From an uncultured delta proteobacterium (lineage in GTDB: Bacteria; Myxococcota_A; Polyangia; Polyangiales; Polyangiaceae), in NCBI GenBank assembly GCA_963850305.1, contig CAWKKR010000008.1:832001-896000 (forward strand): DNA of 64,000 nt, in the 5' to 3' direction. Positions 9,267 through 58,644 of the stretch are shown piece by piece (within the stretch, counting starts at the first letter, position 1; the number at the start of each line of letters is the position of its first letter). Made by a program: the position numbers and the translations under genes. The notes beneath the pieces are model-generated. The model did no database searches. It had not been told where the DNA came from and was given only the letters and a program-made list of their open reading frames with translations.

Positions 9267-11468
<2,202 letters not shown>

Positions 11469-17502: not shown

Positions 17503-17515
17503 GCGGCGTCCTTGA

Positions 17516-18850: not shown

Positions 18851-18866
18851 GCTCACGAGCGCAGCA

Positions 18867-21556: not shown

Positions 21557-21619
21557 GCTTCCAGGGGCCGCGCGGGATCGGGAACGAAGCGAAATCCGTT
21601 CATGGGACGAGTGACCGGG

Positions 21620-22474: not shown

Positions 22475-22507
22475 GGGTTTTGCTTTGTGGCAAATTACTG
22501 ATTCACG

Positions 22508-32786: not shown

Positions 32787-32863
32787 CTATGCTCGCGTAG
32801 TGCCGCGGCTCTTTGATCCCTCGGGGACGACGCTGCTCGTCGATGCGGAACTACTAGGAAGCT

Positions 32864-39459: not shown

Positions 39460-39475
39460 AGCAATTGCCGTACCG
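39460..39475 (-). promoter_or_regulatory. sigma-54 promoter; upstream palindromes at 39526-39538 and 39545-39557
   Basis: CGGTACGGCAATTGCT (GG-N10-GC). Confidence 0.65.
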
Positions 39476-39625
39476 CATTTGCTTCCGGCGAGCGCGCGAG
39501 AGTGCCGGGACTCTGGCAGGACATGCGCAAAGCGTGCGGCGCCGGGCAAGAGGTGCGCTGACATAGAGCGGGCTGGAACCTCGCCTGTCGGGCCGAGGAC
39601 GCACGGAGGGGCACCTGGCGCTCCC

Positions 39626-40390
39626 TCAGCGTGCGAATGGGAGCGAGACGAGGAACGTCGAGGCGCTCACGAGGACGATCAGGGGGCCCGCCGGGAGACT
39701 GCCGAGACGAGACAGGGCAATTCCGACCAACGACGACGAGGCGCCGATGGCCATCGAACCGAGGGCGTACTGTCTCAGATTCTTGCTGACGTTTCGGGCC
39801 GCGGAAGGCGGGATCGCCACGAGAGCCGCGGTGAGGAGCCCCCCCACCATCCGGACTCCCAGCGCGACGATGACCGAGATCGCGAAGAGGTAAAAAAAAT
39901 TATACCGCTTCACGTCGATGCTTTCCGACGCGGCGAGATCCTCCGAGACGTTGATCAGGACCAGCTTCGGGTAGGCCCGGTTCACCCAAAAGACGAGCCC
40001 GAGAGACGCGATCACCGCGCCCACGGTGTCCCCGACGCGAGCCTTGGAAATGTCGCCGACGAGAGCCGCCTCCGCTCGATCGAGAGGCAGAAACAAGAAT
40101 GCAATCGCCACCCCGGTGGCAAAGACGATCGCCGTCAGGGCCTCCATCGGCAGCTTCGTGCGCATCTCGAGGATCCAGATCAGCAGGACGCCGAGCACGA
40201 CGAAGGGGAAGGCGCCCAGGGAAACGTCGAAGCCGAACATCAGGGCGAGAGCAACACCCGGCAACGTCAAGTGTCCCAATGGGCCGGCCACGAGCGCCAT
40301 CCTCCGGCCGAGCATCAACGACCCGAGATACCCAGCGGCGCCCCCGATGAAGATCCCGGCGACGAGGCCGGGGAGGAGCGACTCATCCAT
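39626..40390 (-). CDS. Metal (Zn/Mn) ABC transporter permease
   Basis: RRMAL...LGH..LPGVAL, LVGDI and VGGLL..AL..IP..AAR. Confidence 0.9.
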   Translation of the reverse strand: MDESLLPGLVAGIFIGGAAGYLGSLMLGRRMALVAGPLGHLTLPGVALALMFGFDVSLGAFPFVVLGVLLIWILEMRTKLPMEALTAIVFATGVAIAFLFLPLDRAEAALVGDISKARVGDTVGAVIASLGLVFWVNRAYPKLVLINVSEDLAASESIDVKRYNFFYLFAISVIVALGVRMVGGLLTAALVAIPPSAARNVSKNLRQYALGSMAIGASSSLVGIALSRLGSLPAGPLIVLVSASTFLVSLPFAR

Positions 40391-41153
40391 GTGGGGGCCG
40401 CTCGTGCTGGTGCTGGTAGTACTTCACCTCGGTTCCGTAGATCTGCCGGAGACTCTCGGGCGTCAGCACGGTGATCGGCGAACCGTGGCAAAGTACCTCT
40501 CGGTTCAGGCACAGCACCGTCGACGACAGCTGATAGACCAGGGACAGATCGTGCGTGACGATGAGCATCGTCATGTTCCTCTCGCGATTCAGCCGGGTGA
40601 GCAGACCATAGACGGTCTCCTCGCCGCGAATGTCGACTCCCGTCGTCGGCTCGTCGAACAGCAGGACCCGAGGATCTCCGGAGAGAGCCCACGCAATCAG
40701 GATCCGCTGGAACTGCCCGGAGGACAGGTCGCCCATGCGATGGTTCGCCGTGCCCTCGTCCAGGCCCACGGCGCGCAGCATCTCGCCGACACGAACGCTG
40801 GCGTTCTGCTTCAGTGCGAAGAAGTCGACGACCCTCAGTGGAATGTCGCGGATGTACGGGAGGCGTTGCGGCACGTACCCGACGCGGAGCCCAGCCTCCC
40901 ACTCGATCGATCCGGCATGTGGAAGGACCCCGAGCAAAGCCCGTAGGAGCACCGTCTTACCCGCACCGTTGGGGCCGAGGATGGTGAGGATCTCCCCGCG
41001 CTTCACGGTGAACGACACGCGTTCGAGGACGGCCTGATTCTCGAGCGTCACGGAAAGGTCGGTGACGCGAAGGACCGCGCCGCCGCCGCCCGCCGTGGCT
41101 TCCGCGCTCGTCCCGGGAGTCGGTTGGAACGAGGATGATTCCGAGCTGGTCAT
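40383..41153 (-). CDS. Metal ABC transporter ATP-binding protein
   Basis: GPNGAGKT, GYVPQ, LSSGQFQR and DEPTTGVD; His-rich tail. Confidence 0.92.
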   Translation of the reverse strand: MTSSESSSFQPTPGTSAEATAGGGGAVLRVTDLSVTLENQAVLERVSFTVKRGEILTILGPNGAGKTVLLRALLGVLPHAGSIEWEAGLRVGYVPQRLPYIRDIPLRVVDFFALKQNASVRVGEMLRAVGLDEGTANHRMGDLSSGQFQRILIAWALSGDPRVLLFDEPTTGVDIRGEETVYGLLTRLNRERNMTMLIVTHDLSLVYQLSSTVLCLNREVLCHGSPITVLTPESLRQIYGTEVKYYQHQHERPPHG

Positions 41154-43714
41154 GTCGGCACGCGTTGCACCTCGTGTGTCAGCTCGGATGTCGGCCGGCG
41201 ACGATGGACCACCCGCTTCACGATCTCGACGAACCCGAGATAGGAGGCCGTGGCGACGCCGAGGAAGGCGAAAAACGGGGCCGGGAGCGGCGTGAAGCCA
41301 AGGCGCCCCGCGAAGCCCGTGAACGGCAGAGCCAACGCGATCCCGACGACGGCCACCGTCGCGGTCGAAAGGGCAGCGCTCGGCCGGAAGGAAAACGGGT
41401 TCTTTGCGGTTCGAATGACGAAGATCACGAGCGTCTGCGTGACGAGAGATTCGACGAACCACCCGGTATGGAACAGGGCTTCCGACGCATGAAATAGTTT
41501 GATGAGCACGTAGAAGGTCAAGAAATCGAACACCGAGCTCACGGGTCCGATCCAGAGCATGAATCGCCGAACTTCGTCGATGTCCCAGCGGCGAGGCTTT
41601 CGCACGAAGTCCGGGTCGACGGTGTCCGACGGAATCGTGATCTGCGCAAGGTCGTAGAGAAAATTGTTGAGGAGGATCTGCGTCGGGAGCATCGGCAGGA
41701 ACGGCAACAGGGCCGATGCTCCCGCCATGCTGAACACGTTCCCGAAGTTCGAGCTCGTCCCCATGAGCAGGTACTTCATGACGTTCCCGAACGCCTTGCG
41801 CCCCTCGACGATACCGGTGAAGAGAACCTTCAATCCCGGCTCGAGCAGAATGATGTCTGCAGCGTCCCTGGCGACGTCGACCGCGGTCGACACCGAGATG
41901 CCGACGTCGGCCGCATGTAACGACGGCGCGTCGTTGATTCCGTCGCCGAGGAACCCGACGACGTGCCCCCGCGTTCGGAGGGCACGCAGGATGCGACTCT
42001 TCTGCGCCGGGGAGACACGCGCAAAGACGTGAGCACGCTCCGCCGCATACCCGAGCGCCGGATCGCTCATCTTCTCGATATCGCTTCCGAGGAGAGCGTA
42101 CTGCGTCGGCAGCCCGACGCGTTCGGAGACGTGCAGCGCGACCAGCTCGCTGTCGCCTGTCAGCATCTTGACATCGACGCCGGCGGACCGAAGCGACGCG
42201 AGTGCTTCTCTCGCGTCATCTCGCGGAGGATCCGTGAAGGCCAGGTGGCCCGCAAGGACGAGGTCGTGTTCGTCGTTCTTGGTGTACGCGGAACGCGGTT
42301 CGAGCTTCGAGTACGCGACGGCGAGGACCCGGTACCCGTCCGAGCACGAGCGCTCGAACGCCTCGGTGAAGCGACGTCGTGTCTCGTCATCGAGAACGCG
42401 GACCTTGCCTCCGACTTCGCAGGTCGTGCAAACGGAAAGGACATGCTCCGGCGCGCCCTTGGTGACGAGGAGCGTTTCTCCGCCTCGTCTCGCCACGACG
42501 CTGACGCGGCGCCGTTCGAAGTCGAACGGTACTTCGTCCACCTTGCTGAACCCGGAGATGTCCGGGTGCTCGTGTTTGAGCACGGCCGAATCGAGGGGAT
42601 CGAGCCGAGCTCTGCGCAGGACCGCTTCGTCGACCGGATTGTCGACGCCGCTCTGGAAATAACTGTTCACGTAGCCGAGTAGCAGGGGACGTTCGGACGG
42701 TGCTCCGAGTGGATCGACCCACTGCTCGAGCGTCATCTCTGCGGTCGTGAGGGTGCCGGTCTTGTCCGCGCAGAGAAGATCCATGCTACCGAGATTCTGG
42801 ATGGCGGCGATGTTCTTCACGATGACGTTTTCGCGCGCCATGCGCTGCGCGCCCTTCGTCAAGGTCACGGTCGTGATCATCGGCAAGAATTCCGGAGTAA
42901 GACCCACGGCCAGGGCCACGCCGAACAGCAGCGATTGGAGCGGGTTTCGGTGGAGAGCCGCGTTCACCAGAAACACGAACAGAACGAGGAAGACGACCGT
43001 CTTCAACACGAAGACGCCGAATCGAACGATTCCGCGCTCGAACTCCGAAACGGGCGGGCGAGCGGCGAGCGCGCGGGCGATGCCTCCGAAAGCCGTGCGG
43101 GAGCCGGTGAGCGTCACGGTCGCCACCGCCCGACCGCTCACGACCGACGAACCCATCAGAACGCCGGCTCCGGACTCTTTCTCGACGGGGAGGGATTCAC
43201 CCGTCAGAGCCGCCTCGTTGAGATGCAGATCCCGGGCGTCGAGCACGGTTGCGTCCGCGGGAACCATGTCCCCCGCTTCGAGCCGGATCACGTCGCCCGG
43301 GACGATGAGCCGCCGCGGTAGTTCTTTCCACGCGCCGCTACGAAGCGCCGCGGCGGTCTGGGTCACGCGCGCTTTTAGCGCTTCCGCCGCCCGTTCGGAG
43401 CGCCGCGTCTGAGCAAACTCGACGGCCACGCTCAACGCCACGATGACGAACACGATCGTTGCGTTGGCGACGTCGCCCAGGGCCGCTGAAGCCCCGCTGG
43501 CGATGAGCAGGATGATGACCAGTGGGTTCGCGAAACGAGCGACCGCTTGCCGCAGGAGGGTGTTCTTCTTGGCGACGAAGGGCTCGTTCGGCCCGATGCG
43601 GTCGAGAAGCGCTGCGGCTTCGTCCTCGGTGAGGCCGCCCGACCCCCGCAGGCCGGGAGGCAGGCATGCATCGGCGCCACCTTCCTTCCAGGAGGCAGTC
43701 GTCGCGTTCGACAT
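41150..43714 (-). CDS. mgtA: Mg2+-translocating P-type ATPase (type IIIB)
   Basis: LTPEFLPMI, DKTGTLT, PFDFERRR, SSNFGNVFS, NFLYD and GWFVESL; exact start uncertain. Confidence 0.93.
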   Translation of the reverse strand: MSNATTASWKEGGADACLPPGLRGSGGLTEDEAAALLDRIGPNEPFVAKKNTLLRQAVARFANPLVIILLIASGASAALGDVANATIVFVIVALSVAVEFAQTRRSERAAEALKARVTQTAAALRSGAWKELPRRLIVPGDVIRLEAGDMVPADATVLDARDLHLNEAALTGESLPVEKESGAGVLMGSSVVSGRAVATVTLTGSRTAFGGIARALAARPPVSEFERGIVRFGVFVLKTVVFLVLFVFLVNAALHRNPLQSLLFGVALAVGLTPEFLPMITTVTLTKGAQRMARENVIVKNIAAIQNLGSMDLLCADKTGTLTTAEMTLEQWVDPLGAPSERPLLLGYVNSYFQSGVDNPVDEAVLRRARLDPLDSAVLKHEHPDISGFSKVDEVPFDFERRRVSVVARRGGETLLVTKGAPEHVLSVCTTCEVGGKVRVLDDETRRRFTEAFERSCSDGYRVLAVAYSKLEPRSAYTKNDEHDLVLAGHLAFTDPPRDDAREALASLRSAGVDVKMLTGDSELVALHVSERVGLPTQYALLGSDIEKMSDPALGYAAERAHVFARVSPAQKSRILRALRTRGHVVGFLGDGINDAPSLHAADVGISVSTAVDVARDAADIILLEPGLKVLFTGIVEGRKAFGNVMKYLLMGTSSNFGNVFSMAGASALLPFLPMLPTQILLNNFLYDLAQITIPSDTVDPDFVRKPRRWDIDEVRRFMLWIGPVSSVFDFLTFYVLIKLFHASEALFHTGWFVESLVTQTLVIFVIRTAKNPFSFRPSAALSTATVAVVGIALALPFTGFAGRLGFTPLPAPFFAFLGVATASYLGFVEIVKRVVHRRRPTSELTHEVQRVPT

Positions 43715-43726
43715 CAGCCGGCAGAT

Positions 43727-43742
43727 AGCACCGGGCATGCCA
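43727..43742 (-). promoter_or_regulatory. sigma-54 promoter of the mgtA operon
   Basis: TGGCATGCCCGGTGCT. Confidence 0.6.
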
Positions 43743-43828
43743 CCCGCGCTTCTCGCGCTTCACCCTGGGTAAGAACCCGCGGCATGGACTGACCGGGAGA
43801 CGCGGAAGTCAGGACGCTTCGCAACGGT

Positions 43829-44230
43829 TCAACCGTCTTCCGGCGCCTGGATGGGACCCTCCGCGGCCTCCGCCTCCCCACTCGATGAAACGCCCATCGC
43901 GGCGGCCGAGTAGGCGCCGATCCGTGCGGGCGGGTGGACGAGGTTCGGCGCGCCGATGTCTCCGCCCGAAATGCCGAGCTCTGCGTCCAGGCGCCTGCGG
44001 GTGGCTTCTTCCTCTTCGTCGGTTCGCTGGAGAGCCAGCGCCCCGAGGGCGCCGACAGCGCCGCCCACGACGGCTCCGGCGACCATGCCCGGGGGCCCCG
44101 CGAGTGCGCCGGCAATTCCGCCGGCTGCGGCTCCCGCGACGGCGCCGATCGCCTCGTGCTCTCGGGTGCGTCTAGCCAGATCGTCCTGCGCCGTCTCCGT
44201 CGATCGCCTCGCGTTCTTCTTGCGTTTCAT
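43829..44230 (-). CDS. Small glycine-zipper protein
   Basis: MKRKKN..GAVAGAAAGG.AG..GPPG..AGAVVGG..LDAELG; GGAGG RBS. Confidence 0.75.
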   Translation of the reverse strand: MKRKKNARRSTETAQDDLARRTREHEAIGAVAGAAAGGIAGALAGPPGMVAGAVVGGAVGALGALALQRTDEEEEATRRRLDAELGISGGDIGAPNLVHPPARIGAYSAAAMGVSSSGEAEAAEGPIQAPEDG

Positions 44231-44278
44231 CGTTGCCTCCTGCGCGTCGTTGGTTTGGGACGCACAGGCAAGACAGAG

Positions 44279-44294
44279 AGCAACGATTGTGCCC
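44279..44294 (-). promoter_or_regulatory. sigma-54 promoter; upstream palindromes at 44404-44416 and 44423-44435
   Basis: GGGCACAATCGTTGCT. Confidence 0.7.
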
Positions 44295-44466
44295 GGCGCG
44301 ACTCGTTGCCGAATCGGCAGGCTCGTCCCGATGGAGGCGCCGTCGCCGCCGGATGCCGCGGCGGCCGCGCATTGCGTCAGGGCCATAGACGAATGCCCGG
44401 CAGTGCAGCGTTTGCGGCGGTGCGCGTGTATTGCGCGATCCGCGAAGCCCTTGCATCGCACGTCGT

Positions 44467-46935
44467 TCATTGCTTTCCGGGGGGCCACAGGAGCGACTGG
44501 TGAACGCGCGCGAGGTGCCTCGCCTGGGGCGCGTGCTCGAGCTTTATCAGCCGATACACACCGATCTTCACTGCGCTGTTCAGCAACAGCCACAGAATGG
44601 CGTACGCCCAGACCGCGAGCGCGTACGTCCATCCGATGGGCGCCACGAACCAGCCGTACACCGCGGCGAGCGATCCGATGGCCTGCGTGGTCTCCGCAGC
44701 CACCACGAGCTTCCAGCTGGGCCAGGGCTTCTGCCACAAAGGTCCCGTGTTTCGCGTCAGGTAGATCGTCATGTGACCAGCGACGAGGAGCTTCAGGAAC
44801 ACGACGGTGCGCACCATGTCGCGCGGAAGATGGAGGTAGTCTCGCGCGAACCAGAAGGCGCCGAACGACGACACGACGCCGAGTACACCGAGCACGCTGC
44901 TCATGGTGAGGACGCGCTGCATGTCCCACCGCACCGGGCGCGGCGCGACGGGCGCGTTGTCGTACGCGATCATCATGATCGGAAAGTCGTTCAAGATCGC
45001 GAGCAGCACGATCATCACCGCGGTCACGGGATAAAAGTCGAAGACCAGGATCGACAGCGTCATGAAGAGGAGCACGCGGATCGTCTCCGCGATGCGGTAA
45101 ATCGCGTAGCTCGTCATGCGCTCGAAGATGCGGCGCGCTTCTTCGACCGCGCTCACGATGACCGACAGACCCGACGCCGTCAGTACGACGTCCGCCGCGG
45201 CCCGCGCCGCGTCGGTGGCGCCGCTCACGGCGACGCCGACGTCGGCTTGCTTGAGAGCTGGGGCGTCGTTCACGCCATCGCCCGTCATTCCGACGATGTG
45301 CCCCCGCTTCTGCAGCTCCGCCACGATCGCGAACTTGTGCTCGGGGAAGACCTGGGCAAACCCGTCGGCGCGTTCGATCGCCTCGGACGTTTTCGCCGCG
45401 TCGCGGCCGTCGAAGATGTCCTGCGCGACGGCGATGTTCGCGCCTAAGTGGAGCTGCTTCGCTGTCTCGCGGGCGATGGCGACGTGATCGCCGGTCACCA
45501 TGCGGATCTGGAGCCCGACCCGGCGGGCCGCGTCGATCATCGCCGCCGCGTCGTCTCGTGGCGGATCGAAGAGCGGTAACAGACCGAGCAACTCGTACCC
45601 TCGACCGCAATCGCGTGCGACGCCGAGTACCCGGTAACCCGATTCCGCGAACTCGTCCACGCGCGACGAGACGTGCGCGCGCAGGTCCCCGTCGGCCTGG
45701 ACCAGGTCGAGGATCTCCTGGGGTGCGCCCTTGCTGACCCGCCACCGCTCGTGGCCGCGCTCGACTTCAGCGTCGGCGCGCTTCCTCACCGGGTCGAACG
45801 GCTCGAAGTGAACGAGGTGGAACTCTGCGACCTCCGCCGGGTTCGCGCGGGCGCAAATCGCCGTGTCGATCGCGTCGCCGTCGTGCTCGGTGGAACCGAG
45901 GGCAGCCGCAAGGACGAGGTCCTCCGTGCTGCTCGCACCGAACAGCACCGGATCGCCGAGCGTGAGCAGATTTTTCGTGAGCGTGCCCGTCTTGTCGCTG
46001 CAGAGCACGTCCATGCCGGCCATCTCTTCGATGGAGACGAGGCGCGACACGATGGCCTTCATCTTCGCGAGCTTCGACGCGCCGGCGGCCATGGTGATCG
46101 ACAGGACCGCCGGGAGCGCGACGGGGATCGCTGCAACGGTCAGGATGAGCGCGAACAGGAGGGTCTCGACGAGCGGGGCATGGCGGAAGAGTGCGACCGA
46201 GAGAATGAGCAAGACGAGTGCGCCCGTTACCCCGATGAGGAAGTTGCCGATCCGGAGCACCGCCTTCTGGAAGTGCGATTGAGTCTCGGCGGTCTCGACG
46301 AGCTTCGCGGTCTTGCCGAAGTACGTATCCATACCGGTGCCCGTGACGAGTCCGTTCATCTCGCCCATTCGAACGACGGAACCGGAATAGACGTCGCCGC
46401 CTGCCTGCCGATCGACGGGCAGCGACTCACCCGTGAGCGCGGACTGGTCGACGCTGAGAAACCCGTTCCCGAAGAGCCGCATGTCCGCCGGGACGATGTT
46501 CCCGAGCCGCACCCGGACCACGTCTCCGGGGACAATCTCGGCGGCGTCAATGTCGTGCCATTCGCCGTCACGGAGCACGCAGGCACGCAAGGCGAGCCGC
46601 GCCTTGAGCGCAGAGATGGCCGTGTCGGCCTTGAACTCTTCCCAGAAGCCCACGCCCGCGTTGATGACGAGCATCGAGCCGATGATGATCAAGTCTTCCC
46701 AGTGACGCGCGAACGCGGACAGGACGGCGGCGCACTCGATCATCCAGGGAATGGGGCCCCAGAAGAACACGAACAACCGCCTGGCGATCGAGGTGTGCTC
46801 CTCGGCGAGCGCATTCGGACCGAACTTCTCGCGGCGCCGTCCGGCTTCTTCGGTGGAGAGTCCGGCGGCCGTATCGATTTCAGGAGGCGGCGGGCTCCGT
46901 GCTCCTTCCTGCGAGGGCTCGACGGCAGTCGTCAT
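44467..46935 (-). CDS. Plasma-membrane proton-efflux P-type ATPase (type IIIA)
   Basis: FWGPIPWMIE, IPVALP.V, DKTGTLT, FDPV.KR, RIFERM.SY..YRI and AILND. Confidence 0.93.
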   Translation of the reverse strand: MTTAVEPSQEGARSPPPPEIDTAAGLSTEEAGRRREKFGPNALAEEHTSIARRLFVFFWGPIPWMIECAAVLSAFARHWEDLIIIGSMLVINAGVGFWEEFKADTAISALKARLALRACVLRDGEWHDIDAAEIVPGDVVRVRLGNIVPADMRLFGNGFLSVDQSALTGESLPVDRQAGGDVYSGSVVRMGEMNGLVTGTGMDTYFGKTAKLVETAETQSHFQKAVLRIGNFLIGVTGALVLLILSVALFRHAPLVETLLFALILTVAAIPVALPAVLSITMAAGASKLAKMKAIVSRLVSIEEMAGMDVLCSDKTGTLTKNLLTLGDPVLFGASSTEDLVLAAALGSTEHDGDAIDTAICARANPAEVAEFHLVHFEPFDPVRKRADAEVERGHERWRVSKGAPQEILDLVQADGDLRAHVSSRVDEFAESGYRVLGVARDCGRGYELLGLLPLFDPPRDDAAAMIDAARRVGLQIRMVTGDHVAIARETAKQLHLGANIAVAQDIFDGRDAAKTSEAIERADGFAQVFPEHKFAIVAELQKRGHIVGMTGDGVNDAPALKQADVGVAVSGATDAARAAADVVLTASGLSVIVSAVEEARRIFERMTSYAIYRIAETIRVLLFMTLSILVFDFYPVTAVMIVLLAILNDFPIMMIAYDNAPVAPRPVRWDMQRVLTMSSVLGVLGVVSSFGAFWFARDYLHLPRDMVRTVVFLKLLVAGHMTIYLTRNTGPLWQKPWPSWKLVVAAETTQAIGSLAAVYGWFVAPIGWTYALAVWAYAILWLLLNSAVKIGVYRLIKLEHAPQARHLARVHQSLLWPPGKQ

Positions 46936-47001
46936 GCGCCCTCTGGAAGTGGCGGATCTTTGGGGAGCAGAGCGGCCATCCGAGGTTCTCCGCTCCGGCT
47001 T

Positions 47002-48231
47002 TCACTCGTACCGGAGCGCGTCGATTGGATCGAGCCGCGCTGCCTTGCGCGCCGGGTACAGGCCGAACAGAATGCCCACCATCGCGCTGAACCCGAACGC
47101 GAGTAGTGCCGTCTCGGGCCGCGCCGAAAACTGCCAGCCAAACCGTGAGGCGACCACCTTGGCGGCCAGAAGCCCACTGCCGACGCCCAGTGCGCCGCCA
47201 GCCATCGACAAGGTCACGGCTTCGATCATGAACTGAGCGAGGACGTGCCACGGCTTCGCCCCCACGGCCATCCGGAGACCGATCTCGCGAGTGCGCTCGG
47301 TGACGCTCACGAGCATGATGTTCATGATTCCGATCCCACCCACGACGAGCGAGACGACGGCGATCGCGGCGAGAAGCCCGGTCAACGCGTTGGTGCCCTG
47401 CTGTTGCGCTCCCGCAATTTCCGTCAGATTGCGAACCGAAAAGTCGTCCTCCGTCGCTGACGCCAGGTGGTGCCGATCTCGGAGCACGCCGGCGATTTCC
47501 AGCTCGGCTCGCCTCGTGTCAGCGCTCGAAATCGCGCTCACCATGATGACGCCGGCAATGTAGTTTTGCAGACCACCCTGGATCTTCGTTTGAAACGACG
47601 AGATCGGAATCAATGCGGTGTCGTCGTAGTCGGTGCCCATCGGCGACTGTCCTTTTTGCTCGAGGACTCCGACCACCTGGAATGGTACCGAGCGGAGCCG
47701 CACCGTCCGTCCCACCGAATCGACACCGGGTCCGAAGAGCTTGTCCGAAGCCGTCTGGCCGAGCACGACAATCTTCGCGTTCGACGCGACGTCCTCGTCG
47801 GCAAAGAGCGCCCCTCGCGACACCTTCCAAGCGCGAACGTCGAAGTAGTCCCGGGTCGTACCGGCCACGTTCGTCGTCCAGTTCGCGTCGTCCCCCACGA
47901 TGGTGACTCGTGTGCTCATCACCGGCGCCGCGATATGGACCGCCGGTGCTTGAGTTTGAATCGCGTGCAGGTCGCCCCAGGTGAGCGTCGGCATCGAGCC
48001 GAACCCGCCCATCACGCCGCCCGACGACGTGGAGCCGGACAGCACGATGAGCATGTTCGTGCCCATCGCTGCAAAGACGCTCTCGACACGCTTCTTTGCT
48101 CCTTCGCCGACCGCGACCATCGAGATGACCGACGCGACGCCGATGACCACCCCGAGGGTGGTCAAGAGCGATCGGGTCTTATTCCGGAGCAGGGCCCGCG
48201 CCGCGAGCGGAATCGTCTGAACGATGTTCAC
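47002..48231 (-). CDS. MacB/FtsX-like ABC permease
   Basis: RNKTRSLLT.LG..IG, GIGIMNIMLVSVTERTREIG and DPIDALRYE; GTG start coupled to the upstream stop. Confidence 0.93.
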   Translation of the reverse strand: MNIVQTIPLAARALLRNKTRSLLTTLGVVIGVASVISMVAVGEGAKKRVESVFAAMGTNMLIVLSGSTSSGGVMGGFGSMPTLTWGDLHAIQTQAPAVHIAAPVMSTRVTIVGDDANWTTNVAGTTRDYFDVRAWKVSRGALFADEDVASNAKIVVLGQTASDKLFGPGVDSVGRTVRLRSVPFQVVGVLEQKGQSPMGTDYDDTALIPISSFQTKIQGGLQNYIAGVIMVSAISSADTRRAELEIAGVLRDRHHLASATEDDFSVRNLTEIAGAQQQGTNALTGLLAAIAVVSLVVGGIGIMNIMLVSVTERTREIGLRMAVGAKPWHVLAQFMIEAVTLSMAGGALGVGSGLLAAKVVASRFGWQFSARPETALLAFGFSAMVGILFGLYPARKAARLDPIDALRYE

Positions 48232-48956: not shown

Positions 48957-48965
48957 CGGTCGGTC

Positions 48966-50216: not shown

Positions 50217-50228
50217 CGCGAGGAGCTC

Positions 50229-50244
50229 AGCAACTCTCACGCCA
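50229..50244 (-). promoter_or_regulatory. sigma-54 promoter of the macA-macB-H+-ATPase operon
   Basis: TGGCGTGAGAGTTGCT. Confidence 0.7.
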
Positions 50245-50438
50245 TGTCGCAGAAGGCGCGTGGGCCCCGTCGAGCTCCGCTACGGAGTGCACGTCACCGC
50301 CAGGATGCTCGAAGCAGACGGTTCCAAACGACGCCCCGCCGGTGGCGAACACGTTCGCTCGGTCGCAAGTTTTGCACTTCGGCGCAATGACCGCATCCGA
50401 TCGTGATCGAATGGGGCGTATTTGCGTGACCGGATGGC

Positions 50439-50454
50439 TGGCATCCGGCGTGCT
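50439..50454 (+). promoter_or_regulatory. sigma-54 promoter of the CBS pair (divergent); shared palindromes at 50364-50376 and 50383-50395
   Basis: TGGCATCCGGCGTGCT. Confidence 0.65.
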
Positions 50455-50468
50455 TGAGCAAATGTTCC

Positions 50469-50885
50469 ATGTGCAAGGTTGCCGAAATCATGACGCGCAA
50501 GGTGCTGACGGTTGCCGCCGAGGCGGATCTGGAGGACGCCGCCTGGGGGCTCACACTCAAACGGATTTCGGGTGCACCGGTCAAAGACAAGTGGGGCAAC
50601 GTGATCGGCGTGCTGTCGAAATCGGATCTGCTGGATCCAAACGAGCGCGATCTCCGTTCGGACGAGTCCCCGAAGGCTCGCGACGTCATGACGCCGGTGC
50701 TCTTTGCCGCGAGGGAGACGGACCCAGTCGGGTTCGCGGTTCGACGCATGGTTGAAACGGGAGTGCATCGCCTCGTGGTTCTCGACGAGCGGGGAATCCT
50801 GATCGGTGTCGTGACACCGATGGACGTTCTCCGTGGGCTCCTCGAAGGCAAGGTCGACGCGCGTGACTTCAACGGAACAGTCTGA
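50469..50885 (+). CDS. CBS domain protein
   Basis: V.EIMT, ISGAPV.D, GVLS.SDL, VHRL.V.D and GVVT.MD. Confidence 0.88.
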   Translation: MCKVAEIMTRKVLTVAAEADLEDAAWGLTLKRISGAPVKDKWGNVIGVLSKSDLLDPNERDLRSDESPKARDVMTPVLFAARETDPVGFAVRRMVETGVHRLVVLDERGILIGVVTPMDVLRGLLEGKVDARDFNGTV

Positions 50886-50903
50886 ACGACTCAGGAAAAA
50901 AAC

Positions 50904-51314
50904 ATGAAAGCAAGTCCCGTAACCGCCTACATGTCCCGCAATCCACACTCGATCGGACGCCAGCAGACCATGGCGTCGGCCCACGCGATCATGAAGGAGC
51001 ATGGTATCCGGCACTTGCCGGTGCTCGAGGCTGGGCGCGTCGTCGGGCTAGTTTCCGATCGCGACTTGAACCTGATCGAAGCCTTGAAGGACGTCGATCC
51101 CACGAAGGTCTCGGTCGAGGAGGCCATGACCCAAGATCCGTACGTCGTCTCCTCGACGGAACCGCTCGGCGATATCGTCCGCGAAATGGCGACGCACAAG
51201 TACGGCTCGGCAATCGTGGTCGACGGTTCCAAGCTCGTCGGCATGTTCACCACCGTGGACGCATTGAGGGCGTTCGCGGACACGCAGACGTGGGAAGAGC
51301 GGCATTCCTCGTGA
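50904..51314 (+). CDS. CBS domain protein
   Basis: YMS.NP, IRHLPV, GLVSDRD, EAMT and GMFTTVDAL. Confidence 0.92.
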   Translation: MKASPVTAYMSRNPHSIGRQQTMASAHAIMKEHGIRHLPVLEAGRVVGLVSDRDLNLIEALKDVDPTKVSVEEAMTQDPYVVSSTEPLGDIVREMATHKYGSAIVVDGSKLVGMFTTVDALRAFADTQTWEERHSS

Positions 51315-51350
51315 GCTCCTCCGCGCCGGCCACCCAGACGATCTCCGGGG

Positions 51351-53312
51351 TCAGGACGAAGCGCCAATCAGGGTTTCCAGAGCCGCTTCGAGTTCGTCTA
51401 TCTGGACGGGTTTCGTCAGATAACGGTAAAAGCCGGCTTCTTCCCCGCGCTGCCGGTCGCGATCGGACGCCGCGGCCGTCAACGCAATGACGGGGATGGC
51501 GCGCGTTTCCGGAATGGAGCGCAGGGTGACGAGCGCGTCGAGGCCGCTCATCCCTGGCAGATTGATATCCATGATGATCACCGTCGGCACCTTCGCGCGC
51601 GCAAGCGCCACGCCGATCTCCGCAGTAGGCGCCGTCAGGAGCTCGATACCGTCGAAGTTGCCGAGCAGATCCTCCATGAACCGCACGTTGGCGGGATTGT
51701 CCTCGATGTAGAGGATCGAACGCTGGCCCACCGCGCGAAGGCGCGGTCCTTCGTTCGCTGGCGACGGAACCGCAGCGAGCGCTCCGTTCGTGAGCGCGTG
51801 GATCGGCATGTCCACCCAGAACTCCGAGCCCTCGCCCTCGATGCTTCGAAAGCCGACGGTCCCGTTCATGAGGCCGGCGAGCCGCTTCGTGATCACGAGA
51901 CCGATACCCGTGCCCTCGATCGAGCCTGTCTCCTGTCCGGCGCGCTGGAACGGCTGGAAAAGCTTCCCTTGTTTCTCCTCCGGGATGCCCATCCCCGTGT
52001 CGGTCACGGCGACGCGAACGAAGCCGTCGTTTGGCCTCGAGACGGCGAACGTCACGCAACCTCCCGGGCGGTTGTACTTGATGGCGTTCGAGCCGAAATT
52101 CATCAAGATCTGCGCGAAGCGGGTGCGATCGGCCGTGAGCATGGGCACCGGTTCTGCACCGATCTGGACGACGACCGAAAGCCCGCTGCGGGCTGCCATG
52201 GGCTCGAGCGTCGATTGAACGTGACGGAGAACGTCAGCGACGCTCACGGGTTCCGTCGAGAGCGAGACCGCTCCCGCCTCGATGCGCGAGAGATCCAGGA
52301 TGTCGTCGATGAGCCGGAGGAGGTGCTCGCCGCCTTTGAGGATCTGCGTGACGCGCCCCTGGTGTCGTTCCGACAGGGGCTCTCTCTTGTCTCGCCGCAG
52401 GAGCTGGGCGAATCCGAGGATGGCGTTCAGGGGCGTGCGAAGCTCGTGGCTCATCGAAGACAGGAAATCGCTTTTGGCTGCGCTGGCCGCTTCCGCGGCG
52501 GCCCGCGCGATGCTGAGCTCTTCGGCCACGCGCACGTCGTTGGTCAGATCCCAGATCATCCGAACCGTGCCACCCTCGATGGTGCGGCGATCCACGACGC
52601 GAAGGCTGCGACCGTCACGTGTTCGTACGTCGAACGTGCTCTGATGTTCGCGGAAGGTCGTGACGCGGTCTCTGCGGAAATCGGCCTGCTCTTCCGCGTT
52701 CGAAAATGCGAGATCGACGAGCCACGCGTCGAGGATCTCATCGTGCGACTTTCCGACGAGCGGGCCCGGAAGGGACTCGGCGACGAGTCTCCGAAAGACG
52801 CTGTTGCACAGGACGAGTTGGTCTTCCTTGTCGAAGAGCGCGAAAGCATCCTGGATGCTCTCGACGGCGCTCGAGAGGCGATCGGCCGCCAGCTTGGCCT
52901 TGGCTTCGGTGCGCTTCCGTTCCGAGATGTCGCGAAGCGCAGCCGACACGAGCGCGCCGTCTTTCGTGAAGACGGGGCTCAGGCTGACTTCGATCGCGAT
53001 TTCCTTGCCGTCTGCGCGGCGCCCGAAGAGCTCCAGCCCGGACCCCATGGGACGTGTGCCGGGGTCCGCGAAGAAGCGCGCCACGTGGCTGCGGTGATTT
53101 CGCCGGAGCCGCTCCGGAATGAGAGTCTCGAGCGTCAGCCCGAGGAGCTCGGAACGCGCATAGCCGAACAGGCGTTCCGTTTGCACGTTCACGTATTGGA
53201 TCTTCTCGTCGGGTCCCACGATGACCATCGCGTCCGGCGCGGTCTCGAGAACCTGCCGGAACCACTCTTCCCGGCTCTGATTCGAAACATCGTCGGTCGT
53301 CGGACTAGTCAT
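51351..53312 (-). CDS. Hybrid PAS-PAS sensor histidine kinase with C-terminal receiver
   Basis: PAS domain with H..H..PMG (FixL-like), SHELRTPLN, N.IKY, DTGMG, GTGIGL; receiver MDINLP. Confidence 0.93.
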   Translation of the reverse strand: MTSPTTDDVSNQSREEWFRQVLETAPDAMVIVGPDEKIQYVNVQTERLFGYARSELLGLTLETLIPERLRRNHRSHVARFFADPGTRPMGSGLELFGRRADGKEIAIEVSLSPVFTKDGALVSAALRDISERKRTEAKAKLAADRLSSAVESIQDAFALFDKEDQLVLCNSVFRRLVAESLPGPLVGKSHDEILDAWLVDLAFSNAEEQADFRRDRVTTFREHQSTFDVRTRDGRSLRVVDRRTIEGGTVRMIWDLTNDVRVAEELSIARAAAEAASAAKSDFLSSMSHELRTPLNAILGFAQLLRRDKREPLSERHQGRVTQILKGGEHLLRLIDDILDLSRIEAGAVSLSTEPVSVADVLRHVQSTLEPMAARSGLSVVVQIGAEPVPMLTADRTRFAQILMNFGSNAIKYNRPGGCVTFAVSRPNDGFVRVAVTDTGMGIPEEKQGKLFQPFQRAGQETGSIEGTGIGLVITKRLAGLMNGTVGFRSIEGEGSEFWVDMPIHALTNGALAAVPSPANEGPRLRAVGQRSILYIEDNPANVRFMEDLLGNFDGIELLTAPTAEIGVALARAKVPTVIIMDINLPGMSGLDALVTLRSIPETRAIPVIALTAAASDRDRQRGEEAGFYRYLTKPVQIDELEAALETLIGASS

Positions 53313-54433
53313 GAGGGATCCTGATCTTGAAAATGGCGCCGGGGGCTCCGTCTTCGATCCAAGTTCGGCCGCCGTGCGCTTCGACGGCCAGTTTGCAAAA
53401 CGCGAGGCCGAGTCCACGCCCGCTCCTGGTGAGACGGCGATCGCCGCCGGGTTCTGCTTGAACGAAAGGGTCGAAGACGCGCTCGCGGAGCTCGCTCGGC
53501 ACACCCGAGCCAGAGTCGGTCACGGAAAGCTCGGTGCCGCCCTCCGCGGCGATGGCCCGGATCGAAACGACCGTTTCCGGCGGCGCGTGTCGGATCGCGT
53601 TTTCGACCAGATTCACGAGAATTCGTCGCAAGAGGTCCGCGTCGGCATGGATCCGGTCGACGCCGGCGAAGGATTCCAGCCGAATGCGGCGCGCCTGCGC
53701 CGTCGCGCCGAGCTCATCGGTGAGATCCGTGAAGAGTACGTGCACGTCCAGGCTCCCTGGCCTGGCGACGAGCTTGCCTTCGTCCCCTTTGCTGAGGTCG
53801 AGCAGGTTCAAGAATCATCCGGCCGAGCTGGCGTGCCTCGCTTCGAATCTGGGTCACCGAAGCGCGCGCGCTCTCCGAGAGACTTGGGTCGCGGAGCAAG
53901 ACCTGAGCGTGAAGATCCATCGAGTTCACCGGGTTCTTCAGATCGTGAACGAGAAATGCCGTCAGACGCTCCTTCTGAAGCTGGACTCGCAGGAGATCGT
54001 CGCGCTGGTGCTTGAGGAGCTCGTAGTGCTCCCGGAGCTCTCCTCGCATCTGGCGGAGCTTGAGCGCGATCTGAACGCGCGCAACGAGCTCCGCCGGGCG
54101 CACCGGCTTCGTGAGAAAGTCGTCTCCGCCGGCCATGAGCGCGCGGTCGAACGTGTCCACGTCCCGGAGCGCCGTCAGAAAGATGACGGGCGTCTCCGCG
54201 CCGCGGGGGAGCTCACGAATCCGCGCGCACGCCGTGAAGCCATCGATGTCCGGCATCCTCACGTCGAGCAGGACGCAGTCCGGCGCGTCGCGCGAAACTG
54301 CTTCGACAGCCGCGACGCCGCCCGTCGCAAGGACGACGTGGTAGCCCTCGTCTTCGAGGGTGCTCGCCGCGAGCGTGCGGTTCGCCTCGTTGTCGTCGAC
54401 CACGAGTATGCGGCTAGGGGGAGCGACCTCCAT
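53305..54433 (-). CDS. Receiver-histidine kinase hybrid, frameshifted near 53812
   Basis: Receiver (VVDD, LDVRMP) and HDLKNP in one frame; NLLDLS, NL.ENA, D.G.G and GLGL in the next frame. Confidence 0.85.
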
Positions 54434-54528
54434 GACTTTTGCGGGCCCGAACGTATCATTGTCGCGGGCACTACGAAGGGTCGCAGGAACAATTCGGCCG
54501 GGGCCCAGCGAAAAGCGGCCCCGATGCA

Positions 54529-55602
54529 TCACTTCGACGCGTCGTGCGGGCATAGAACGCGAAGAGCATTCCGGTTGAAGATACGCTCGACATCGTCGTG
54601 GCTCATCCCGGACGCGACGAGCGCGCGAGCGAGCACCGGGAAGCGCGCCGCGGTTTCGAGGCCATCCGGCGCGCGCACGCCCTCGTAACCCGAGCCGATC
54701 GCGACATGGTCGATGCCGGCCACTCGCGCCATGTACAGGATTTGGCGAAGGAGATCGTGCAGCGACGCCGCGTGGCCGCGCACGATCCGATGCTCGTCGA
54801 AGCTAACTGCTACTACCCCTCCGCTCGCGCCGACGGCACGCAGCTCGGAATCCGTCAGATTTCTCGCGTCGCCTGCTTCTCTCCAGGCATTCGAAGAGAT
54901 GCTGACCACCGGAGCCTTGAGCTCCCTGGCGATCTCGAGCACGTCCTGGCGAGTCATTGCGGAACCGGAACCGATGTCCACGATGCCTCCGGCTGCGTAG
55001 ATTCGCCGCACGACCTCGGCGCCACGAGAGCTCAGCCCGACGACCGGCCCCGGCGGCGGATCCTTCCACGACGTCGCGAGCTCGTTGTCCTCCGAGTCGA
55101 CGAGGCGGAACAGGCGAACCCCGCGCGTGACCCAAAGTCCAATCTTGGTCGGCTCGCGCGCAAGCTCCGACGCACCGTCGATCGCAAACCACGTGCGGAT
55201 CCCGTCCGACGGGCGCGAGCAGCCCGGCGAGCGGAACTCACCCGACTGGGAAAGCCAGCGCTCGACGTCGTGAAACACCGTGTCCGTCGTCATGTCGAGG
55301 GGAGCCCATGGCCTCGGCTCGTGCAACGGCAGAACGACACCTACGACATTGCCTTGCCGGAGTCGGAGGTCGGTCGCTTGCCCGCGTTCGCCGTCGAACG
55401 GCTGGGGACCGTTCAGTGAGCGCGGAGTGAGTTCCTCCGCGAGATCGACGACGGGAATCGCCGTGTCCTCGCTTTTCGCGTCGTGTGGAAGCAGAGCGAA
55501 CAGGCCGACGCCGAATGCGAGCAACTTCCTCGCGGCTCGCCCTCGTCGACCTCGTGCCCTCGACACATCCGGAGAGACGAGCGTCATCGGCGTCGGGTTC
55601 AC
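54529..55602 (-). CDS. Membrane dipeptidase (M19)-like protein with degenerate active site
   Basis: GLS..G..VV, RNLTD.EL, GIDHVAIGS and N.LR motifs are present; metal-ligand motifs are altered. Confidence 0.75.
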   Translation of the reverse strand: MNPTPMTLVSPDVSRARGRRGRAARKLLAFGVGLFALLPHDAKSEDTAIPVVDLAEELTPRSLNGPQPFDGERGQATDLRLRQGNVVGVVLPLHEPRPWAPLDMTTDTVFHDVERWLSQSGEFRSPGCSRPSDGIRTWFAIDGASELAREPTKIGLWVTRGVRLFRLVDSEDNELATSWKDPPPGPVVGLSSRGAEVVRRIYAAGGIVDIGSGSAMTRQDVLEIARELKAPVVSISSNAWREAGDARNLTDSELRAVGASGGVVAVSFDEHRIVRGHAASLHDLLRQILYMARVAGIDHVAIGSGYEGVRAPDGLETAARFPVLARALVASGMSHDDVERIFNRNALRVLCPHDASK

Positions 55603-56027
55603 GGCGCCCAGTAGGCGTCGAAGACGTGATCCTGGATGACCTCGAGGTCCGCTTCCGCGATGTCCTTCGGGACGGACGCGACGATGAGCGCGCGGGTCGC
55701 CTCGTCCAGCGCGGCGCGCAAGAGTCCCAGGAAGTGAGGCTCCGCGACCAGAATTATCCGTTCGACGGCGTGATCGGTCCGGCCTCGGCGAAGCTCCCCC
55801 GCGAGTTCCTTGGCAAAGTCATGGGCTGCGTGTTCGTGGGGTGAGGTGTTCTGCTGACGTCCTCTTGCATGGCTATCGAAGGTTCGATGCGAGCTTCCGC
55901 CTTCGATGCTTTCGTCGCGTCCTCGGCCCGAGGGGAATTCGATATTCTCCACCAGGCCGAGCCTTCGCCCATCCCGCGCGAAGATGCGCGCGCTCACGCG
56001 ATTCGCAACAAGAACCCATGTAGCCAT
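55599..56027 (-). CDS. Host attachment (AtsE/baeRF12-like) protein
   Basis: TWVLVA....ARIF, FAKELA, LVAEPHFLGLLR and V.KD. Confidence 0.88.
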   Translation of the reverse strand: MATWVLVANRVSARIFARDGRRLGLVENIEFPSGRGRDESIEGGSSHRTFDSHARGRQQNTSPHEHAAHDFAKELAGELRRGRTDHAVERIILVAEPHFLGLLRAALDEATRALIVASVPKDIAEADLEVIQDHVFDAYWAP

Positions 56028-56056
56028 TGGCCTCTCGCTTTCTCTGACCGAGAAAC

Positions 56057-56072
56057 AGCAAGCGGCATGCCG
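56057..56072 (-). promoter_or_regulatory. sigma-54 promoter; upstream palindromes at 56126-56138 and 56145-56157
   Basis: CGGCATGCCGCTTGCT. Confidence 0.72.
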
Positions 56073-56198
56073 CCGGTCGGGACCGCGGCCTCGGGACGAT
56101 TTTCGTCCATTCGAGCTCGGCGAGACGCAGAACGTGCGCTGGAGCGCACAGCCTGCGAACGCCTGGCTTCGGGTGTCGGTTCGAGGCGCCAGCCACGG

Positions 56199-57458
56199 TT
56201 ATCTCCCGACTGCAGGACCGATCCTGGCCCTGCGGCGTGTTCGTCGAATGAGCGCGGCGTGGCAGGCGAACGCGAGTGCGCCGTTGATGAATAGCGCCCG
56301 GCGCACTCCCCAGTGCGAGGTGACCATTCCCGTGACCAGATTGCCGATGGGCGCCCCGCCGCGCAACGCCAGTGTGTACATGCTGGAGAGACGGCCACGG
56401 AGACGGCTGTCTATGGAGCCTTGAAGGATGGAGTTGGCGGCGGTGTTGCTCGCGACCATCGCAACGCCCACGATGAAGAGGAGCGCGAGTTCGAGAGCGA
56501 AGCTTCGACCCAGAGCCAGGGCCGCGACGACGACGCTCAGACAAACCGCGGCGAGGCTCGACAGAATCTGCCGGTGTCGATTCGTCTTGAGAGGTAAGAC
56601 GACCGAGGCGCCGACGAGTCCACCGAAACCGAACACGGAGAGTGCACCGCCGAATTCACGGCTTCCCAGATGAAAGGCGTCCCTGACGAGCACCGGCAAG
56701 AACGTGACCGTGGGCATGCACAGCAAGCTCGTCACCACGACCGTCAGGATTGCGCGCCGGAGCCGGTGCCTCCTTGCGATCGTCGTGGCGGCTTCCAGGA
56801 TGGATGCGCGAGCGAAAGTCGAGCCGTTTCGTGGGGAAGGTGCGGGAGCCGGGATGCGGAGCAGGTACAGCGCGAGGAGATAGGGCGCATAGGACGAGGC
56901 GTTGAGCACGAAACAGGCGATGGGACCGACGGCGGCCATCGCCACGCCGGCGAAGAAGGGTCCGAGCACTCGTGAGAGGTTGAGCTGCGCCGAGTTGAGC
57001 ACCACGGCGCTCGGAACTGCGTCCTCCGGCACCGACGAAGGGACGAGTGCGTTGATTGAAGGACCGGACAAAGCGTCCGTCACGCCGACCACGAGCGAGA
57101 GAGCGATGACCATCCAGACCCGGATGCGTCCCGTGAGGAGAAGCACGACCACGAGCACCGGGCAGATCACCTGGATGCCCTGAAAGAGCAGCGCGGTTCG
57201 GCGGCGGTCCGCGCGGTCGGCGATGACACCTCCCGCCAAAATGAGCGCCCAGATGGGCGCGTCCGTCATGAACGAATCGAGGCCGAGCAAGAACGCCGAG
57301 TTCGACAGCCGAAGGACGAGCCACGGCTCTGCGACCTGCTGCATCCAGGTGCCGGTGTTCGACAGCAAATTCCCGAGCCAGAGGATCGAGAAATTGCGTG
57401 ATCGCAAAGCCAGAAAGACGCTGGACTTCGAACCCGGAGGTCTTGCCGAGTCGGGCAC
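56199..57458 (-). CDS. MFS transporter
   Basis: RNF..LW.G..SNTGTWMQ, GVIADR.DRR and LRGR; about 12 TM segments. Confidence 0.93.
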   Translation of the reverse strand: MPDSARPPGSKSSVFLALRSRNFSILWLGNLLSNTGTWMQQVAEPWLVLRLSNSAFLLGLDSFMTDAPIWALILAGGVIADRADRRRTALLFQGIQVICPVLVVVLLLTGRIRVWMVIALSLVVGVTDALSGPSINALVPSSVPEDAVPSAVVLNSAQLNLSRVLGPFFAGVAMAAVGPIACFVLNASSYAPYLLALYLLRIPAPAPSPRNGSTFARASILEAATTIARRHRLRRAILTVVVTSLLCMPTVTFLPVLVRDAFHLGSREFGGALSVFGFGGLVGASVVLPLKTNRHRQILSSLAAVCLSVVVAALALGRSFALELALLFIVGVAMVASNTAANSILQGSIDSRLRGRLSSMYTLALRGGAPIGNLVTGMVTSHWGVRRALFINGALAFACHAALIRRTRRRARIGPAVGR

Positions 57459-57491
57459 GCGAAACCAATCTACCGGGGAAGACGGCTCCGG

Positions 57492-58443
57492 TCAGGACGC
57501 CGCCTTCAGCGCGACGCCGCTTTCTCGACGTGCGTCTTCTTCTCGAAGGCGCCTCGAGAGCCGCGCATGTTCGGGAGTTCCTTCGAGGCTCGCGAGCACG
57601 CGCTCCGGCGTCCCCCAGTCCGACCATCCGCAAGGCGCGAGCCGCACGATCCCGAGCGCATCCGCGCGCTCGAGTACGTCGCGCGAGAAATCGGCGGCGC
57701 TCATGTCGTCGTAGCATTCGGAGAGCAGGCGCCGCTCCCACGGCCGTCCGATGGCGTGGCGGTACGAGTGAAGGCGCGCGCACTGCGCGGGCATGTTCTC
57801 GCTCCCCAGCTGCCAGAAGCGGTTGGCCGAGGCCGACCATCATGAATGTGTTCCACAGCGCGCCGCGCGCGAAAAGGTTCTCTGCCTTCTGTCGGGTCGG
57901 TTTTTCGAGAAACGCGGTCACTCGATTCGAGTCCGCGACGATCCATCCGTACTGAGTCTCGGGCGCCTCGGGAGTTGCACCGATGAGCACGACTCGATCG
58001 GTGTCTCTCGCCATGGTTTCGGCTTGCCTCACCGCGTCGAGCAGCGGCGCCTCGTCCCGGACGTGATGGTCCGAAGGCATCACGGCCACCATCGCCGACG
58101 GGTCGCGTGCGAGCACGTGCGATAGAGGGAGGAGCAACCCCGGGCCCGTTCCACGGTTCTTCGGCTGGACGACGATCTCGACGTCCCCGAAGTTCCGGAG
58201 CTGTTCGCGCGCGACCGACTCTTGCTCTTGCGCAACGACGACGACGGTGTGCTCCGGCTTGCTCCAGCGGGACGTTCTCGAAAGCGTCGCCTGGAGAAGC
58301 GATCGGCTCCCGACTATGCTCGCATATTGCTTCGGCACGTCCGCGCCGTGAATCGCTCGCGTGAGAGGGCGCAGGCGCGTTCCTTCACCGGCGGCGAGAA
58401 TGATGGTCCAGAGGTTTGCTCGAGGTCGGTTGTTCTGGGTCAT
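57492..58443 (-). CDS. Mannose-1-phosphate guanylyltransferase-like nucleotidyltransferase, frameshifted near 57830
   Basis: IILAAG.GTRL..PKQY, QP.NRGT, PSDH, FLEKP, LWNTF; the next frame has DFSRDVL..GWSDWGTPER. Confidence 0.85.
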
Positions 58444-58457
58444 GTGACCCCTGCTTG

Positions 58458-58473
58458 TGCAAGGGGCTTGCCA
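58458..58473 (-). promoter_or_regulatory. sigma-54 promoter; upstream palindromes at 58518-58530 and 58537-58549
   Basis: TGGCAAGCCCCTTGCA. Confidence 0.75.
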
Positions 58474-58644
58474 TGTTTCGCGTTGGAGTCATTCACCGTC
58501 TCGGTCTCGATGGCGCGTGCACCGATTGCGCCGGTCCGAAAACGGTGCGGCATTGAGGGAGATGCGGGGCTCGGGGGGAAGTTCGGGGCGCGCGCTCACC
58601 CACCGCATCGCCCACGCGAGGGCACTCGCCCAATCGAAACGCCC

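Follow-up and report, generated by a model that had tools for sequence, protein, structure and literature searches.

Which activator would control a run of seemingly unrelated operons that share sigma-54-type promoters and paired palindromes, and to what signal would it respond? The operons lie in a stretch of 64,000 nucleotides (the window; G000:C8:832001-896000) from an uncultured member of the Polyangiaceae, whose assembly (G000) comprises 6.26 Mb at 66% GC and is 95% complete. Judged from sequence comparison, the operons probably belong to a low-oxygen regulon driven by P0001, a paralogue of the Myxococcus xanthus activator NmpR that falls in a separate group, termed clade A. The activator would act through pairs of sites whose starts are 19 bp apart (period 19) and through the accompanying sigma-54 boxes.

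The initial annotation had placed seven GG-N10-GC sigma-54 boxes in the window, each facing its gene, and five palindrome pairs with starts 19 bp apart; all are present (Table 1). Scored with a matrix trained on 18 boxes from outside the window, the seven boxes reach 12.0–15.8 bits, in the top 1.3–7.8e-5 of intergenic 16-mers, and the best six of the 22 window boxes scoring at least 10 all belong to them. Trained on 19 pairs from elsewhere in the genome, a site matrix recovered, at period 19, exactly the five paired regions described for the window. When these intergenic regions were shuffled with dinucleotides preserved, a pair appeared in 0, 0, 0, 2 and 0 of 1,000 sequences, a partly circular comparison, as the pattern was drawn from the same sites. 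The pair at 44404/44423 had been described incompletely, a third site at 44443 having been overlooked. The mgtA box, as noted earlier, has no full pair of its own in the window scan; mgtA orthologues have a pair and a box in three congeners.

In the rest of the genome, 20 YGCA-N5-TGCR pairs lie at period 19 when no more than one mismatch in total is allowed, of which 19 are intergenic, whereas other periods from 13 to 44 give 0–11 pairs (0–6 intergenic, the six at period 20). These outside pairs are the independent test of the pattern. Regulon calls required a pair score of 18 or more and a box no further than 230 bp away; at period 19–20 they comprise 34 pairs: six in the window, in five regions, and 28 outside, 18 of which had served as training sites. 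The window is five of about 33 enhancer regions in a genome-wide set, and the regulon is not the confined cluster of about 20 kb that had been proposed. Islands of pairs occur at C4:535-564 kb, C5:16-55 kb, C7:507-513 kb, in the window and at C8:1448-1465 kb.

The first genes downstream include a cbb3 ccoNO fusion, four universal stress proteins (USPs), CBS proteins, two hemerythrins and one CBS-hemerythrin, together with nitroreductases, Dps, SPFH, phosphoenolpyruvate synthase, an N-ATPase operon and a multiheme protein; some of the target gene runs also include, at a later position, genes for acetate kinase and NiFe hydrogenase. Uncertain targets are hemL (C8:1804185) and thioredoxin, from both of which the good box faces away. 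At G000:C3:56390 (L281) a period-19 pair separates a nitroreductase gene from an N-ATPase operon. Between enhancer and box, the IHF consensus is absent in 6/6 regions; pair-to-box distances cluster near 42, 53 and 64 bp. In relatives, a helical phasing of 10.5–11 bp in these distances, seen over 43 promoters (Rayleigh p 2e-5; jitter p 5e-5), speaks for the proposed regulation. Between the signals first suggested, hypoxia or dormancy and acid stress, low oxygen is favoured by the cbb3 ccoNO, hemerythrin, USP and CBS targets and by the globin-coupled kinases described below, and acid is less favoured.

The core of these sites is that of NmpR. The published M. xanthus consensus is GCGCA-N5-TGCGC (PMC11841059), as the initial annotation had suggested, and the G000 site matrix, G-Y-G-C-A-N5-T-G-C-R-C, is equal to it. 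The same account gives a gap of 14–15 nt in five of seven NmpR-bound promoters, 5 nt at pilR and 24 nt at nmpU (PMC11841059), which convert to periods of 29–30, 20 and 39. This conversion holds because periods 29 and 39, as published for NmpR, are seen at L203, a metagenome locus retrieved with a primer from PMC6211767; it is a relative, not M. xanthus itself, and its protein matches peptides encoded by the published nmpR primers. The period of 19–20, an exception in M. xanthus and the rule in G000, is one helical turn below the 29–30 of NmpR, and both dimers therefore stay on the same helix face. The evidence thus supports the idea that a single sigma-54 activator uses tandem dimer sites, with the spacing of the paralogous clade in place of that of NmpR.

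Only two of the about 30 sigma-54 activators encoded by G000 carry the recognition helix S[VI]R[TK]IQY, namely P0001 and a canonical NmpR at C7:1008348-1009889. P0001 is a REC-AAA+-HTH (helix-turn-helix) protein with the phospho-Asp and GAFTGA. In a quick tree of 60 rows (49 NmpR-like proteins and 11 other G000 activators), P0001 and the C7 paralogue group with L203, apart from other activators (Shimodaira–Hasegawa-like approximate likelihood-ratio test 99), and P0001 lies within the 28-row clade A (support 100). Thr replaces Lys in the recognition helix of 27 of the 28 clade A rows, the other row being cut short, and the AAA-HTH linker has 12 residues in 21 of 23 scorable rows; outside the clade it has 13–17 residues in 14/16, the two rows that do not fit being basal to clade A. 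That the shorter period goes with the shorter linker is plausible, at slightly less than even odds.

The closest named relative of P0001 among the matches listed, which were mostly distant activators and of which only L071 and L068 were used, is L071, from a Polyangiaceae metagenome-assembled genome (68%); it nests in clade A. The locus L223 (G019:C290), basal to clade A, combines a Lys helix, a 12-residue linker, a period-19 pair and an mgtA neighbour, and so separates linker from helix. The activator encoded in the window itself (1716-3089) was discarded as a candidate regulator, having a different recognition helix and falling outside the NmpR clade. At G000:C7:1008348-1011503 (L205), canonical nmpR and nmpS-like genes occur without nmpT and nmpU, and this locus is missing from four congeners; a second period-31 pair, besides that of the C7 paralogue's own promoter, precedes a glycine-zipper paralogue at C1:340353.

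The spacing follows clade A across 60 relatives, 21 with and 39 without the clade, as assigned from best matches only. The median period-19 count is 14 with clade A and 3 without, compared with 3 and 2 for the period-22 control, and an excess of at least 5 over period 22 is found in 15/21 and 1/39 genomes, respectively. The congeners G001–G004 have clade A and 12–22 pairs, and G005 and G006 have no clade A and 1 and 2 pairs. G034, with 20 pairs, at first gave no full-length clade A match; a follow-up search then found one, and it is counted among the clade A genomes. Near clade A genes (42 loci) the best promoter pairs have periods of 19–20 in 22 of 30 cases, whereas near other NmpR-family genes (22 loci) 12 of 14 have periods of 29–31 and none has 19–20. 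The activator gene adjoins the mgtA orthologue, with a period-19 pair, in G001, G003 and G004. Genome-level counts at period 29–30, which have a high background, did not separate canonical-NmpR genomes from others.

The input to the activator in G000 may differ from that of NmpR. In 13 of the 21 clade A relatives, read by hand, a globin-coupled kinase directly precedes the activator, and PDB 5OHE is a match (E = 4e-39) for the globin domain encoded next to clade A activators of other genera. At L185, L189, L211–L216 and L220–L222 globin-PAS-kinase fusions with an NmpS-type helix stand directly before clade A activators; such fusions are a one-step form of the Nmp relay. In G000, at 95% completeness, no protoglobin was found by PF11563, tblastn or phmmer, and so no NmpU; for the NmpT double receiver, the L203 protein gave only one match, at 28%, and no NmpT was recognised. 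No NmpS-type hybrid kinase adjoins P0001, although one lies beside the C7 paralogue. The clade A globin domain had no match in G001–G005, with weak, different protoglobins in G002 and G004, and no NmpS-type kinase was found in G001–G004 (best 35–39%, against 44% for the control G011).

Two kinases of the window (a PAS hybrid kinase, P0002, and a receiver-kinase) may replace the globin kinase as activator input, as their distribution suggests. They co-occur in 13 of the 60 relatives, at most about 1.7 kb apart, G017 having only one of them. The module is present in 8/8 clade A genomes in which no globin kinase adjoins the activator (half of these eight are congeners, and in G023 the activator lies near a contig end), in 3/13 with one and in 2/39 others. 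In G001, G004, G007, G029 and G008 an NmpR-family gene is found no more than about 5 kb from the module; G007 has the activator and both kinases on a single strand, and the NmpR-family neighbours in G008 are of the canonical type. Four further paralogues or pieces of the PAS hybrid kinase occur at C5:64440-66092, C8:908923-909999, C4:77749-80064 and C1:710986-712152.

The receiver-kinase carries N, L and H at H+7, +11 and +12, which we take to be, in role and offset, kinase specificity positions; these are the residues of the globin kinases. Among 43 G000 kinase motifs only that of the receiver-kinase has this combination, which occurs in 2/65 background motifs and is kept in full in 12 of 16 receiver-kinase orthologue loci. 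The PhoQ numbering used for the helix positions is that of 10.1101/2024.07.28.605469. A period-19 pair lies within 1.4 kb upstream of the receiver-kinase in 4/4 congeners and 0/11 other loci (one at 20), with no box on the gene's strand at three of the four congener pairs.

By both sequence and fold, FG214, FixL and DosP come closest to the first PAS domain of P0002. Its model (predicted local distance difference test score 84.5) matched these proteins in all 24 of the best listed chains, with template-modelling scores of 0.77–0.86. Its His (H65 of the domain) and a Met, both invariant in 18/18 orthologues, align with FG214 His156 and Met172 (10.64898/2026.03.15.711900), and PMC10468136 gives this His, which lies on helix F-alpha, as the chief determinant of heme binding.

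In the proposed mechanism, low oxygen would lead to phosphorylation of P0001. Two phosphorylated dimers would bind a period-19 pair on one helix face and then oligomerise, and the bound activator would loop to the sigma-54 polymerase, at a distance of 40–130 bp, to bring about promoter opening in the way demonstrated for NmpR; the promoters so opened would serve respiratory, ion-pumping and dormancy-type genes. Upstream of these steps, the PAS hybrid kinase may sense oxygen through heme and signal by way of the neighbouring kinase's receiver to the activator, replacing NmpU and NmpS, a relay to which we give not quite an even chance.

Several observations weigh against this account. The single rpoN of G000 (C9:20315-21786) is split over three reading frames, and the candidate receiver-kinase is frameshifted. 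P0001's own promoter showed no pair in the site and box scan, unlike the autoregulated nmpR. Clade A genomes without the period-19 excess number six of 21 (G011, G024, G028, G029, G030 and G050), and conservation of the pair upstream of homologues is partial (Host_attach 3/4, MacA-like 4/10, S2P-CBS 0/3). The p-values from relatives overstate, as the relatives are not independent, and in G000 alone pair-to-box phasing is not significant (32 promoters, p 0.08). The tree results rest on the quick method, the careful search not having finished. A canonical NmpR and an NmpS-like kinase are encoded in the same genome.

These last two genes raise the alternative that the canonical C7 NmpR, alone or together with P0001, drives the regulon at period 19–20, as NmpR does at pilR. 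Its recognition helix is nearly the same as that of P0001, M. xanthus NmpR itself binds one period-20 pair besides those at 29–30 and 39 (PMC11841059), and the kinase at C7:1010094-1011503 is the closest in G000 to the clade A globin kinases (34–39%). The C7 paralogue's own promoter pair has a period of 31, however, canonical loci show no pair at 19–20, and G001–G004 have the period-19 regulon though neither a canonical NmpR nor an NmpS-type kinase was found in them, which makes this alternative improbable. Somewhat less improbable, while still unlikely, is that P0001 is the regulator and that it responds here to acid, redox or energy state: ion pumps and nucleotide-binding proteins are numerous among the targets (H+-ATPase, MgtA, N-ATPase, CBS/USP), G000 yielded no globin sensor, and FG214, the best structural match, is described as redox-regulated (10.64898/2026.03.15.711900). 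The FixL distal residue Arg220 is, moreover, not kept in the P0002 PAS, which has Leu at that column. Against this stand the cbb3 oxidase and hemerythrin targets, shared with the NmpR regulon, and the globin-coupled kinases beside the activator in relatives.

A regulon that is real and decaying, with genuine frameshifts in rpoN, the receiver-kinase and the M1P-guanylyltransferase-like gene, is very improbable. The receiver-kinase is the only split gene among 32 compared with congeners, so that errors are not frequent everywhere; yet it is intact in 15/15 other matches, the about 30 activators, the boxes and the pairs remain intact, and other genes are split too (an activator at C2:92305), fitting scattered assembly errors, as which the rpoN and receiver-kinase frameshifts are likely to be read. 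Chance or codon periodicity in GC-rich DNA accords with a period-19 count that, at two or more mismatches, is no higher than that of other periods, the peak being lost in the background. It is refuted by the outside-window peak, by the nearby boxes (19 of the 20 outside pairs being intergenic and most near a box), by co-occurrence across genomes, in which the peak tracks one gene, and by the locus spacing test; 19 is, moreover, not a multiple of 3. Regulation by P0001 in response to low oxygen is thus the reading retained here.

The gene starts in Table 1 are the output of a simple in-house gene caller. Among the labels given earlier, those of the Mg- and H+-type P-ATPases pass NCBIfam cut-offs, whereas macAB, the metal ABC transporter and the M1P-guanylyltransferase fall below them and are given as 'like'. 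Elsewhere in the window, good sigma-54 boxes without a period-19 pair precede dps (box 1052-1067, + strand; gene 1098-1580, followed by the unrelated activator at 1716-3089) and katG (box 11541-11556, − strand; gene 9267-11447), and these two boxes possibly form a separate peroxide circuit. An IS110-family transposase lies at 32787-34097, and the same 38-mer occurs at C8:718921, 788464, 831358 and 865660. The gene run at 16885-23584 is presumably arsenic-resistance-like, to judge from its translations, and 59117-63988 holds an alpha-2-macroglobulin-family gene of 1623 aa.

Table 1 Boxes, predicted activator sites and genes of the window, with the two NmpR-family activators of G000 (window coordinates unless a contig is given)
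Feature	Coordinates	Strand	Remark
Sigma-54 -24/-12 box, S2P(M50)-CBS protease gene	39460..39475	-	15.5 bits
Sigma-54 box, mgtA	43727..43742	-	no own pair; nearest enhancer 660 bp upstream
Sigma-54 box, glycine-zipper gene	44279..44294	-	13.5 bits
Sigma-54 box, macA-like operon	50229..50244	-	14.8 bits
Sigma-54 box, CBS gene pair	50439..50454	+	12.0 bits
Sigma-54 box, Host_attach-dipeptidase-kinase operon	56057..56072	-	15.8 bits
Sigma-54 box, M1P-GT-like/MFS operon (M1P-GT, M1P-guanylyltransferase)	58458..58473	-	14.2 bits
Predicted activator-site pair (39526/39545)	39526..39557		period 19
Predicted activator sites, three (44404/44423/44443)	44404..44455		periods 19 and 20
Predicted paired sites	50364..50395		period 19; flanked by two divergent sigma-54 boxes
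Predicted paired sites (56126/56145)	56126..56157		period 19; perfect CGCA-N5-TGCG twice
Predicted paired sites	58518..58549		period 19
M50 peptidase-CBS protein gene	38113..39393	-	predicted target
ZnuBC-like metal ABC permease and ATPase genes	39626..41153	-	downstream of mgtA
Mg-translocating P-type ATPase gene mgtA (MgtA)	41150..43714	-	
Small glycine-zipper protein gene	43829..44230	-	predicted target
MacA-like, ABC ATPase, MacB-like permease and proton-efflux P-type ATPase genes	44467..50123	-	predicted operon
Two CBS-domain genes	50469..51314	+	
PAS-PAS-HisKA-HATPase-REC hybrid kinase (P0002) gene	51351..53312	-	first PAS predicted to bind heme
REC-HisKA-HATPase kinase gene	53308..54433	-	frameshifted near 53810-53844 in assembly; candidate activator kinase
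M19 dipeptidase-like and Host_attach/baeRF12 genes	54529..56027	-	first in kinase operon
M1P-guanylyltransferase-like and MFS transporter genes	56199..58443	-	frameshift near 57834 in the former
P0001 gene, clade A NmpR paralogue	G000:C8:1451130-1452503		outside window; inside cbb3 island
Canonical NmpR gene of G000	C7:1008348-1009889		beside NmpS-like kinase

The nearest known system is NmpRSTU of M. xanthus, with the same REC-AAA+-HTH family, GCGCA-N5-TGCGC core and two sites per promoter with a sigma-54 box (PMC6211767, PMC11841059). The target sets are also alike: both include an operon that encodes two sensor kinases, besides genes for cbb3 oxidase, USPs, CBS proteins and hemerythrins. 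The system of G000 works like NmpRSTU, with an NmpR-family activator, but fails its spacing, NmpU, NmpS and NmpT features: it has about 33 enhancer regions against seven NmpR promoters, its activator, a paralogue, has a 12-residue linker and a recognition helix in which Thr stands in place of Lys, neither an NmpU globin kinase nor NmpT was found in G000, and autoregulation of P0001 was not seen. Globin-coupled kinases of the AfGcHK/NmpU type (PDB 5OHE) are matched in other genera by the domain beside clade A activators; there the globin is fused to an NmpS-type kinase helix, and G000 and its congeners are without such proteins. Compared with the heme-PAS sensors FG214 (PDB 10JX), FixL and DosP, the P0002 domain shares the fold, the proximal His and the FG214 Met; it is without FixL Arg220 and FG214 His175, and belongs to a PAS-PAS hybrid kinase, with predicted heme binding, that adjoins a receiver-kinase. 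The DosR dormancy regulon of mycobacteria likewise has many USP, CBS and nitroreductase genes in a target set of low-oxygen type; its regulator family and sigma factor differ, so that the likeness is one of content only. A link of USPs to DosR-type dormancy regulons is also drawn in PMC11841059. A literature search on NmpR, on Sorangium and Polyangiaceae sigma-54 regulons and on helical-turn spacing, with subscription journals mostly outside its range, returned no report of clade A, its spacing or the relay; the S2 Fig of PMC6211767 on Nmp homologue synteny may already show some of the loci.

As a tentative history, somewhat more doubtful than either the link between linker and period or the heme-PAS relay, nmpR may have been duplicated in the Polyangiales, one copy keeping the core while its period shifted from 29–31 to 19–20 through a shorter linker, which would insulate the paralogues by spacing alone; in this genus the globin kinase would then have been lost and the heme-PAS relay of the window gained. 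This genome offers a natural pair on which to test directly what determines the spacing of a sigma-54 activator's dimer sites and what keeps duplicated activators that share a motif from cross-talk: both paralogues occur together, their sites have a common core at periods that differ by one helical turn, and their linkers have 12 against 13–17 residues. The seven-promoter NmpR regulon would be extended to a large low-oxygen programme in the Polyangiales, and the window's kinases are candidates for a heme-PAS relay that has taken the place of a globin sensor.

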